The notes: generated from the letters alone by a model not told the origin. Shown: positions 4,821 through 10,471, counted from the stretch's first letter. The stretch is DNA of 53,608 nt from Bacteroidota bacterium (GCA_029266015.1 JAJUFK010000001.1:1-53608), one strand, 5' to 3'. Numbers and translations: made by a program.

Positions 4821-4858
4821 AACAACAATATTTTATTTTTTATATTATACAATTGCCA

Positions 4859-6730: not shown

Positions 6731-7016
6731 ATGCCTTATCATTTTTATAAGCATATTAGAATTTACAGAAACATCTAACTTACAAACAATTAACCATTCT
6801 TTATATTACAACAAAAATTCATAAACCAACTCTTTTTTGACAGTTTTTGTAATAAAAAAATGACAATTTGACTTAAAAAAATCATGTAACCAATTCAATG
6901 TAACAAATAAAGAAATTGTTTTTAAATTGTTCATATTTAATTGAATCTGTTCTATTAAAATTTTAATTGTTTTTATGACCTTTGAATGATTTTTATAATT
7001 TTTGTAAAAAATATAT

Positions 7017-8336
7017 ATGGACGAGGTTCAAGACGAAGCAATACAATCCAAGCAAGATTCTGACATACAGCATATAAAATACATATCGGGTCAATTTGAA
7101 GATTGGTTTCTTGATTATGCATCGTATGTAATAATGGAGCGTGCTGTACCATATATAAACGACGGTTTAAAACCGGTGCAACGACGTATACTCCATTCTA
7201 TGAAACGAATGGACGATGGCAGATACAATAAAGTTGCAAACATAATTGGTCATACCATGCAATTTCACCCACATGGGGACTCATCAATAGGTGAAGCTTT
7301 GGTTGGATTAGGACAAAAAGAATTATTGATTGACACCCAAGGTAACTGGGGAAATATTTATACCGGCGATAGTGCTGCCGCTCCTCGTTATATAGAAGCA
7401 CGATTATCAAAATTTGCAAATGAAGTTGTTTTTAATCCGAAAACCACTATTTGGAAATCATCATACGACGGTAGAAACAAAGAACCTATTACCTTACCGG
7501 TAAAATTTCCGTTACTTTTAGCTCAAGGGGTAGAAGGTATAGCTGTGGGAATGGCATGTAAAATTTTACCTCATAACTTTAATGAACTTATAGATGCCAG
7601 CATAAAATATTTACAAGGCAAACCATTTGAATTGTATCCCGACTTTCCGACAGGTGGTTATATAGATATTACAAAATATAATGACGGACTCAGAGGTGGT
7701 GTAGTAAAAGTTCGTGCAAAAATTGTAAAAATTGACAATAAAACATTGGCTATTACAGAAATTCCATATGGCAAAACTACTACTGCCGTAATTGATTCTA
7801 TAATAAAAGCAAATGAAAAAGGTACTATTAAAATTAAAAAAATTGATGATAATACCGCTGCTAATGTTGAAATACTAATTCACCTTCCGCCAAATGTTTC
7901 GCCCGACGAAACTATTGACGCATTATATGTTTTTACCGAATGTGAAATTTCAATTTCTCCAAATGCAAGTGTTATAATAGAAAAATCTCCTGAATTTATT
8001 GGTGTTTCTGACATATTACGAATATCAACCGACAAAACTGTAGAATTACTCCGTCGTGAATTAGAAATTCGTTTAGAAGAACTCAAAGAAGATTGGATGA
8101 AAACTTCGCTCGAAAAAATATTTATTGAAAAAGAAGTATATGAACTTATTAAACCTTGTAAAACAGAAGAAGAAATTCTTAGCACAATTTTTAAAGGTTT
8201 AGAACCCCATGTCAAAAAATTCTGGCGTCTGGTAACTCGCGAAGATTGCGTGATTCTTTCAAATATTCCTATTAAACGAATTTCTAAATTCAGTTCGTTT
8301 AAAGCCGATGAGTATATTAAAGAAATTGAAATTTAA
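7017..8336 (+). CDS. parC: DNA topoisomerase IV subunit A (ParC), N-terminal fragment ending at an in-frame TAA
   Basis: 439 aa with GLKPVQRRILH, HPHGD and the active-site AAAPRYIEARL (catalytic Tyr). The GyrA/ParC breakage-reunion domain continues without loss of similarity into the next ORF in the same frame. Confidence 0.85.
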   Translation: MDEVQDEAIQSKQDSDIQHIKYISGQFEDWFLDYASYVIMERAVPYINDGLKPVQRRILHSMKRMDDGRYNKVANIIGHTMQFHPHGDSSIGEALVGLGQKELLIDTQGNWGNIYTGDSAAAPRYIEARLSKFANEVVFNPKTTIWKSSYDGRNKEPITLPVKFPLLLAQGVEGIAVGMACKILPHNFNELIDASIKYLQGKPFELYPDFPTGGYIDITKYNDGLRGGVVKVRAKIVKIDNKTLAITEIPYGKTTTAVIDSIIKANEKGTIKIKKIDDNTAANVEILIHLPPNVSPDETIDALYVFTECEISISPNASVIIEKSPEFIGVSDILRISTDKTVELLRRELEIRLEELKEDWMKTSLEKIFIEKEVYELIKPCKTEEEILSTIFKGLEPHVKKFWRLVTREDCVILSNIPIKRISKFSSFKADEYIKEIEI

Positions 8337-9740
8337 ATGGATGAAGTAAAAAATCATCTTGCTCATATGATAGATTTTGCTATCAACTATTTTACTCAAA
8401 TTCAAAAAAAATACGGAAAAGACAAAGAACGCAAAACAGAAATCAGAAATTTTGAACAAATAGAAGCAACTCAAGTTGTAATAGCTAACACTAAATTATA
8501 TGCAAATTTAGAAGATGGTTTTGTTGGCACATCGCTCAAAAAAGACACATTTATTTGCGATTGTTCTGATATTGATGACATTATAGTATTTATGCAAGAC
8601 GGTAAATACAAAATATCAAAAGTGAGTGACAAAGCATTTTTTGGAAAAAATATCATACATATTGGTGTATTCAGGAAAAATGATGAACGTACAATTTACA
8701 ACGTTGCGTATCGCGATGGTAAATCAGGAATAACTTATATGAAACGATTTGCTGTAACGGGCATAACTCGTGACAAAATCTATGATGTTACTAAAGGAAC
8801 ACCTAATTCAAAAGTCTTATATTTTAGTGCAAATCCTAATGGTGAAGCCGAAATTATAAAAGTGTATTTACGTCAGAATCCTCGTTTACGCAAAACTATT
8901 TTTGAAGTTGATTTTAGCACACAAGTTATTAAAGGAAGAAATTCACAAGGAAATATTTTAACAAAGCATCCATGCTTCAAAATAATTAAAATAGAAGAAG
9001 GCGTATCTACTTTAGGTGGAAGAAAAATATATTTTAACTTTGAAACAAAACGATTAAATGATGGCGGTTATGGTGAATATTTAGGGGAATTTAAGGGGTC
9101 AGACAAAATATTGGTTCTTACAGCCGACGGCAAGTATACTCTTACCACTTTTGATTTAAGTAATCACTACGAATATGAAATTCTAAAAATCGAAAAATTT
9201 GATGATTCTAAAATTTGGACAGCCGTGTTCTACGACGGTGAACAAGAAAATTATTATATAAAACGATTCGAAATTGAAGAATCAAGTAAATTCATAAGTT
9301 TTATTGGTGAACATGAAAAATCATATTTAGTAGCTGTAAATGATGATGTGTATCCACAACTACAAATAGAATTTGGAGGCAAACATGCTTCTCGCGAACC
9401 TGAATTAATTGATGTAGATGAATTTATTGGTGTAAAAGGTATAAAAGCTCGTGGTAAACGTATTACTACCTTTACTGTAAAAACAATAACATTTATTGAA
9501 CCATTAGAAAAAATTGCATCTTCAGACGACACAATTGATCCTGAATCAGAAATTGGAGAAGAAGACTCTTCTGATGACACTATTGAACCTGAAAGTGATT
9601 CTGAAATAGATTCTGAAAATACAATGGTAGAAACAACAAATGATGAAAAAATAAATATAAATACGTTATCGTCTGTAAAACCTAAAAAAGAACCGCCTCA
9701 AAATTCATCAAATACGCCAAGTCAAATGTCATTATTTTAG
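8337..9740 (+). CDS. parC: DNA topoisomerase IV subunit A (ParC), C-terminal fragment (rest of coiled-coil arm, beta-pinwheel CTD, acidic tail)
   Basis: 467 aa. The ATG immediately follows the TAA of the previous ORF in the same frame. It begins inside the conserved helix that precedes ...KYGKDKERKTEI. Repeated beta-pinwheel blades follow, then a D/E/S-rich tail. Confidence 0.85.
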   Translation: MDEVKNHLAHMIDFAINYFTQIQKKYGKDKERKTEIRNFEQIEATQVVIANTKLYANLEDGFVGTSLKKDTFICDCSDIDDIIVFMQDGKYKISKVSDKAFFGKNIIHIGVFRKNDERTIYNVAYRDGKSGITYMKRFAVTGITRDKIYDVTKGTPNSKVLYFSANPNGEAEIIKVYLRQNPRLRKTIFEVDFSTQVIKGRNSQGNILTKHPCFKIIKIEEGVSTLGGRKIYFNFETKRLNDGGYGEYLGEFKGSDKILVLTADGKYTLTTFDLSNHYEYEILKIEKFDDSKIWTAVFYDGEQENYYIKRFEIEESSKFISFIGEHEKSYLVAVNDDVYPQLQIEFGGKHASREPELIDVDEFIGVKGIKARGKRITTFTVKTITFIEPLEKIASSDDTIDPESEIGEEDSSDDTIEPESDSEIDSENTMVETTNDEKININTLSSVKPKKEPPQNSSNTPSQMSLF

Positions 9741-10411: not shown

Positions 10412-10471
10412 GTTGTTATTTTTTACAAAAATATGAAATTTGTTTTAATCTAAAAGGTAAAATTCTAAAAT

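Follow-up and report, generated by a model that had tools for sequence, protein, structure and literature searches.

A private single-base difference places an in-frame TAA in the otherwise intact parC of a Bacteroidota metagenome-assembled genome

We report that parC, the gene for subunit A of DNA topoisomerase IV, is broken at codon 440 by an in-frame TAA in one Bacteroidota metagenome-assembled genome (MAG), and that this stop is a single G-to-T difference at position 8334, private to the MAG contig. With somewhat better than even confidence, we take the T at 8334 to be a consensus error or a minority variant. The one substitution would then have turned the GAA codon for Glu440 of an intact, single-copy parC into TAA, while the organism's own gene most likely has GAA at codon 440 and yields one ParC of 907 amino acids. 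The stop would be an artefact of the consensus, the metagenome bin being fragmented and probably of low coverage, and would stem either from a base-call or assembly error or from promotion of a minority read variant into the consensus.

Results

A single stop codon divides a Bacteroidota-type parC

The window analysed here is the whole contig of 53,608 nt, and all positions are counted from its first letter. The TAA at 8334-8336 is the sole separator of two ORFs in the same frame, 7017-8336 (439 aa) and 8337-9740 (467 aa), the codons at 8319-8351 reading ...AAA GAA ATT GAA ATT TAA ATG GAT GAA GTA... (Table 1). Apart from this codon, the parC reading frame contains neither a second in-frame stop nor a frameshift. 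The NCBIfam profile NF009397 (PRK12758, 'DNA gyrase/topoisomerase IV subunit A'; 870 positions) matched the N-terminal part over profile positions 5-438 with 783.8 bits, which passes the cut-off of 780 bits unaided, and the C-terminal part over positions 442-861 with 549.1 bits. Since the two matches are colinear, the stop replaces exactly one residue of one Bacteroidota-type ParC. PF00521 covered residues 42-438 of the N-terminal part (E=1.7e-103), and the catalytic Arg-Tyr pair, R124 and Y125, was invariant across 25 aligned sequences and aligned to the gyrase active-site segment ...AAMRYTEAR.... With 907 codons in total, the gene is of the same length as its intact relatives (904-915 aa), to which it is 69-91% identical. 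A sequence-only reading of this stretch had identified the gene as parC, had described the two ORFs as parted by the TAA alone, had estimated about 906 residues in total as a normal size for ParC, and had judged both halves intact; each of these statements agrees with the profile matches, the codon count and the open frame. The remaining window consists of long clean ORFs under table 11, which excludes a different genetic code.

Table 1. Coordinates of the interrupted parC gene and its parts.
Feature	Position	Strand	Basis and remarks
Whole parC (DNA topoisomerase IV subunit A, Bacteroidota type)	7017..9740	+	907 codons including the internal TAA, plus terminal stop; NF009397, PF00521
N-terminal part, 439 codons: cleavage core with catalytic Tyr125, tower, outgoing coiled-coil helix, C-gate, first half of the return helix (predicted layout)	7017..8333	+	PF00521, NF009397, alignment, model
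In-frame TAA, codon 440	8334..8336	+	T at base 8334; other copies with DNA read have G
ATG, Met441, an ancestral internal codon	8337..8339	+	Codon comparison with relatives
C-terminal part, 467 codons: remaining return helix (to ~466), linker, beta-rich CTD (~492-830), low-confidence acidic/Ser-rich tail (predicted layout)	8337..9740	+	NF009397 profile 442-861; secondary structure from model

Close relatives carry a glutamate codon at the site

Proteins and contigs nearly identical to the window were found in public assemblies. P0005, a protein of 907 aa recorded from two contigs (NCBI, JGI/IMG, Logan), has Glu440 and matches the window protein at 906/906 other residues. P0004 (nine contigs) differs from the window protein, beyond codon 440, only by L405P and I809V. 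The alleles L405 and I809 are the window strain's own; they are present in P0005 and absent from P0004 and from two DNA contigs described below, X3 and L024. P0005 carries both alleles together with Glu440, so the same strain type exists with GAA.

At the DNA level, a soil metagenome of 2019 from a separate study (X3) yielded a contig of 2,834 nt that covers window positions 7000-8583 with 8 differences in 1584 nt (99.5% identical) and reads G at 8334. L024 (JGI contig Ga0116190_1000591) is 98.9% identical to the window across 11.4 kb and has GAA at codon 440, as does G001, a genome of the same genus. The sequence-only reading had named a sense codon in related strains as the mark of an error, and GAA is what these three relatives have at the position. 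A single uninterrupted frame, as expected of a ParC, is thus present in P0005, X3, L024 and all relatives, and is lacking in this assembly.

Within the 90% protein cluster, both halves are recorded from one contig only, the present one of 53,608 nt, with NCBI as the sole source. None of the 13 other members listed has a stop at the site, two of them ending short of it; these members are full-length (904-915 aa) or apparently cut by contig ends, and Glu is found in every one that covers the site. Among the sequencing runs considered, mostly from anaerobic digester, sludge and wastewater with some from soil, the putative source run X1 contained a 0.99 share of the sampled words, a value that either one SNP or a contig break could explain and that carries no weight in the argument; runs X4 and X6 matched only with spurious pieces of 18-50 nt, which speak for neither base.

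Comparison with more distant genomes gave a consistent result. The frame is open at the site in 19/19 genomes of the same family, codon 440 being GAA/GAG in 11, GAT in 6 and CGA in 2, and the following codon is ATG in 16/19 and ATA in 3/19. The next codon was already Met, so that TAAATG is Glu-Met turned into stop-Met by a coincidence of ancestry; the codon comparison shows that this ATG descends from an internal Met codon of the ancestral gene and was not acquired for re-initiation. The comparison was widened to 78 further species-representative Bacteroidota genomes. Upstream of the Met441 equivalent, 75 of them have an open frame of 400 codons or more and the other 3 run to the end of the locus, and a stop at codon 440 is absent from 78/78. 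Codon 440 in these species is GAA/GAG in 39, AAA/AAG in 20 and CAA/CAG in 13, and the Met441-equivalent codon is ATT/ATA/ATC in 65 and ATG in 10.

The gene shows constraint and no sign of decay

Besides the stop, parC of the window differs from that of L024 by 11 synonymous and 2 non-synonymous substitutions. This pattern points to a gene under purifying selection with no sign of decay. Across the 11.4 kb shared with L024, all indels are intergenic and the coding regions are indel-free; the only multi-base indels measure 13 nt and 5 nt (window 10447-10459 and 4840-4844, respectively). Given zero amino-acid changes relative to P0005, the stop, if real, would be extremely young. No significant G-to-T excess was seen between the window and L024 in an unpolarised comparison (10 G:C>T:A versus 5 in the reverse direction). 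Polarising the window-specific substitutions with G001 was possible at 8 sites only, all in parC, because synteny and similarity ended there.

A single-copy gene in a fragmented assembly

Contig C319, which is the window, belongs to an assembly of 2.63 Mb in 438 contigs that is 94% complete. The names borne by members of the 90% cluster, together with the habitats of the sequencing runs, assign the organism to the uncultured Bacteroidales. No second parC was found in this 94% complete genome, the other type IIA A-subunit matches being pieces of gyrA only, which is split over two contigs (G000:C53:3121-4029 and G000:C5:7683-7868; 32% identity). The suggestion that the broken gene could be a decaying duplicate beside a second intact parC therefore finds no counterpart in the assembly. 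Both gyrB and parE are intact, being represented by open GyrB-family frames of 650 aa and 639 aa; the ParE partner and the separate gyrase expected of an organism with a ParC are thus both present. Eighteen tRNA genes were assembled, with no tRNA-Glu and no tmRNA. The distribution of gyrA over two contigs and the incomplete tRNA set both mark the bin as fragmented and probably of low coverage.

The break is predicted to fall within a helix of the C-gate coiled coil

The position of the stop in the protein was evaluated on an AlphaFold2 model of P0005, the intact conspecific protein, built from an alignment of 25 sequences. The model was poor overall (pLDDT 57, pTM 0.32; shallow alignment), and we used from it only the helices within residues 330-466 (pLDDT 69-86) and the secondary structure of the CTD. 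It shows a long helix at 330-371, small helices at 374-423, and two further helices, 427-449 and 451-466; a linker of low confidence then leads to a beta-rich domain that starts at ~492. Helix 427-449, which forms the return arm to the long helix 330-371, contains residue 440 (local pLDDT ~83). A phmmer search against the PDB aligned residues 22-476 to the GyrA N-terminal cores of B. subtilis (4ddq) and S. aureus (6qx2), and in this alignment residue 440 is 36 residues ahead of the ...RRTEI at which the crystallised cores end. Model and alignment together place the stop midway along the return helix of the coiled coil at the C-gate, away from any domain boundary, in accordance with the location that the sequence-only reading had assigned to it. 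The C-terminal tail (window 9500-9737, residues ~830-907) is acidic and Ser-rich with pLDDT under 50, and total lengths vary among relatives (904-915 aa). Folding of the RNA around the junction revealed no structure above shuffled controls (z = -0.74).

ParC fragments among public proteins have scattered start points

Searched with the C-terminal half, public assemblies gave thousands of ParC pieces, 256-818 aa long. In the best 120 of these thousands (P0018-P0137), the start points were scattered from residue 54 to residue 526. The Met441 equivalent is the first residue of three pieces in this set (P0026, P0032 and P0052), a number equalled or exceeded at several other internal Met or near-Met positions, and there was no enrichment of starts at residue 441 among the best 120 of the thousands. 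The species genome nearest to P0052 (96% identical), that of Carboxylicivirga linearis, has an intact parC. Broken parC calls are a frequent form of noise in assembled metagenomes, and nothing marks out position 441. Some of the truncated pieces lie on contigs of more than 100 kb or have many members, such as P0074 (565 aa; 312 members, 15 contigs).

A second conserved gene of the same MAG carries the same change

The whole genome was scanned for pairs of same-frame ORFs, each of at least 120 codons, separated by one stop. The scan yielded 186 pairs, nearly all of them abutting genes; TAA, which ends most of these ORF junctions, is the dominant ordinary terminator here. At twenty junctions where coding-like sequence directly follows the stop, the stop was translated as X and the joined frame was searched with Pfam; parC makes the 21st junction examined. 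Among these 21 examined junctions of the 186 candidates, two were clear in-frame interruptions, parC and a gene for an ABC-F ATPase. Apart from those in surface proteins on contigs C7, C30 and C250, the other Pfam-tested junctions were ordinary abutting genes, and candidates on C419 proved to be antisense shadows of a fully open frame on the + strand. At ten more junctions, inspected by eye only, the downstream frames start like ordinary gene N-termini.

The ABC-F gene lies on C388, a contig of 1,843 nt, and reads ...DEPTNHLDLDVI*WLEDTL..., with the TAA at G000:C388:1196-1198 (L045 1196-1198; L034 592-594). In its Pfam layout the first ABC domain is found just upstream of the stop, AAA_21 and SMC_N span it, and the ABC-extension domain and second P-loop region follow downstream. 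An invariant Glu (GAA/GAG) occupies the stop site in 11/11 relatives. Both the parC and the ABC-F stop arise from ATT-GAA turned into ATT-TAA, and this recurrence of one base change in one sequence context fits a systematic technical cause, though two events are few.

Discussion

The TAA in parC is found in a single contig, and its origin has to be weighed between a technical fault and a real allele. We infer an artefact from several observations. A protein with Glu440 that is otherwise identical exists (P0005), and the X3 and L024 DNAs read G; the frame is open throughout the family, and no listed member of the protein cluster is broken at the site. Only one parC was found in the genome, gyrB and parE are both open, and a fixed knock-out of parC would be unexpected. 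The MAG contains a second ATT-GAA to ATT-TAA change, in the ABC-F gene (C388:1196), and is poorly assembled (438 contigs for 2.6 Mb, 18 tRNA genes, gyrA on two contigs). Against an artefact, substitution errors are uncommon in a short-read consensus at normal depth, and the window is otherwise clean, with no frameshifts and no clear G-to-T excess relative to L024. Just two clear interruptions were found, so the assembly is not riddled with them, and natural populations do contain real nonsense polymorphisms, which can enter a MAG. This last point leads to the strongest competitor, to which we give perhaps a third of our belief: a genuine, very recent nonsense allele, with a sub-lineage of a digester Bacteroidales strain carrying parC GAA>TAA. 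Such an allele may be a nascent pseudogene or a deleterious variant hitch-hiking at appreciable frequency, and may be partially rescued by restart at the adjacent ancestral ATG, the N-terminal fragment keeping the whole cleavage core and the C-gate. The TAA does stand in the deposited consensus, the private synonymous changes of the window strain mark it as a distinct lineage and not a chimera, and the absence of amino-acid changes relative to P0005 would suit an extremely young event. Bacteroidota initiation is SD-poor, and an A/T-rich, unstructured upstream region would allow restart; the region upstream of the ATG has this character (z = -0.74). The ability of separate N- and C-terminal GyrA fragments to complement each other in vitro also speaks for this reading. 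Against a real allele stand the single-copy and normally essential nature of parC, the otherwise identical Glu allele in public assemblies, the predicted break in mid-helix of a coiled coil and not at a domain boundary, and the identical type of change in another conserved gene of the MAG, which points to a technical cause.

The readings in which a broken frame still serves the cell are far less probable. In one, the T is real and common in the digester strain, and the cell lives with a newborn two-polypeptide ParC. Ribosomes would end at the TAA and restart at the adjacent ancestral ATG, and the first 26 return-helix residues of the C-terminal fragment would dock onto the outgoing coiled-coil helix, tethering the CTD. 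We consider this very unlikely; nothing found points toward a true high-frequency TAA. Slightly less credible still is an evolved two-gene ParC, a stable lineage feature expressed by termination-reinitiation at TAAATG with the halves reassembling via the coiled coil. Both halves are intact, an ATG directly follows the stop, and P0026, P0032 and P0052, from other assemblies, also start at the Met441 equivalent. However, no split occurs in the conspecific strains, the 19 family genomes or the 78 wider species genomes; the ATG is older than the stop, and the break is predicted in mid-helix. The truncated pieces start at dozens of positions (54 to 526), with 441 not enriched among the best 120, and the species genome nearest to P0052 (96% identical) is intact. 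Neither conservation in related genomes nor a break at a domain boundary with an acquired start codon, as expected of a split enzyme, was found, and on these comparative grounds an evolved split is effectively refuted. Least probable of all, and hardly to be credited, is recoding of TAA as Glu by a suppressor tRNA or programmed read-through, giving full-length ParC. Both in-frame TAAs do stand where relatives encode Glu, at a conserved codon in parC and at an invariant one in ABC-F; yet among the single G>T steps that create a stop, GAA>TAA is the most frequent in any AT-rich genome, TAA remains the general terminator here, the conspecific strains use GAA, and no RNA structure was found at the site. 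No tRNA with a stop anticodon and no suppressor tRNA is present among the 18 tRNAs found, in a set that is incomplete and contains no tRNA-Glu. The sequence-only reading had left three alternatives side by side; error and recent nonsense mutation are both favoured by the Glu or GAA of P0005, X3, L024 and G001, and the genuinely split gene falls away with the lack of any split relative and the ancestry of the ATG.

A consensus artefact remains our preferred explanation, and with it the stop matters mainly as a quality flag, for a MAG with at least two GAA-to-TAA interruptions in conserved genes. Annotation pipelines would label its parC and ABC-F genes pseudogenes. If a high-frequency TAA were true, the strain would offer a natural experiment of a rare kind, in which an essential topoisomerase subunit withstands a break in the C-gate coiled coil.

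Type IIA subunits can in principle work as two polypeptides. In phage T4, gp39 and gp60 constitute a split GyrB-like subunit as a fixed phage feature, and N- and C-terminal fragments of GyrA can complement each other in vitro. These splits lie at domain boundaries; unlike them, the parC break interrupts, by our model, a coiled-coil helix, and no relative shares it. A literature search for naturally split GyrA or ParC found nothing specific. The protein itself resembles a Bacteroidota-type ParC (NF009397/PRK12758; PF00521) in its near-full colinear match, in R124/Y125, in its length of 907 codons and in the presence of a parE partner, and differs in that TAA replaces Glu440 in this assembly alone. 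The interruption resembles the internal-stop 'pseudogenes' of draft genomes and MAGs, with one private substitution, a gene that is intact in relatives and a second case in the same MAG, and nothing sets it apart from them save that the stop happens to precede an ancestral Met codon.
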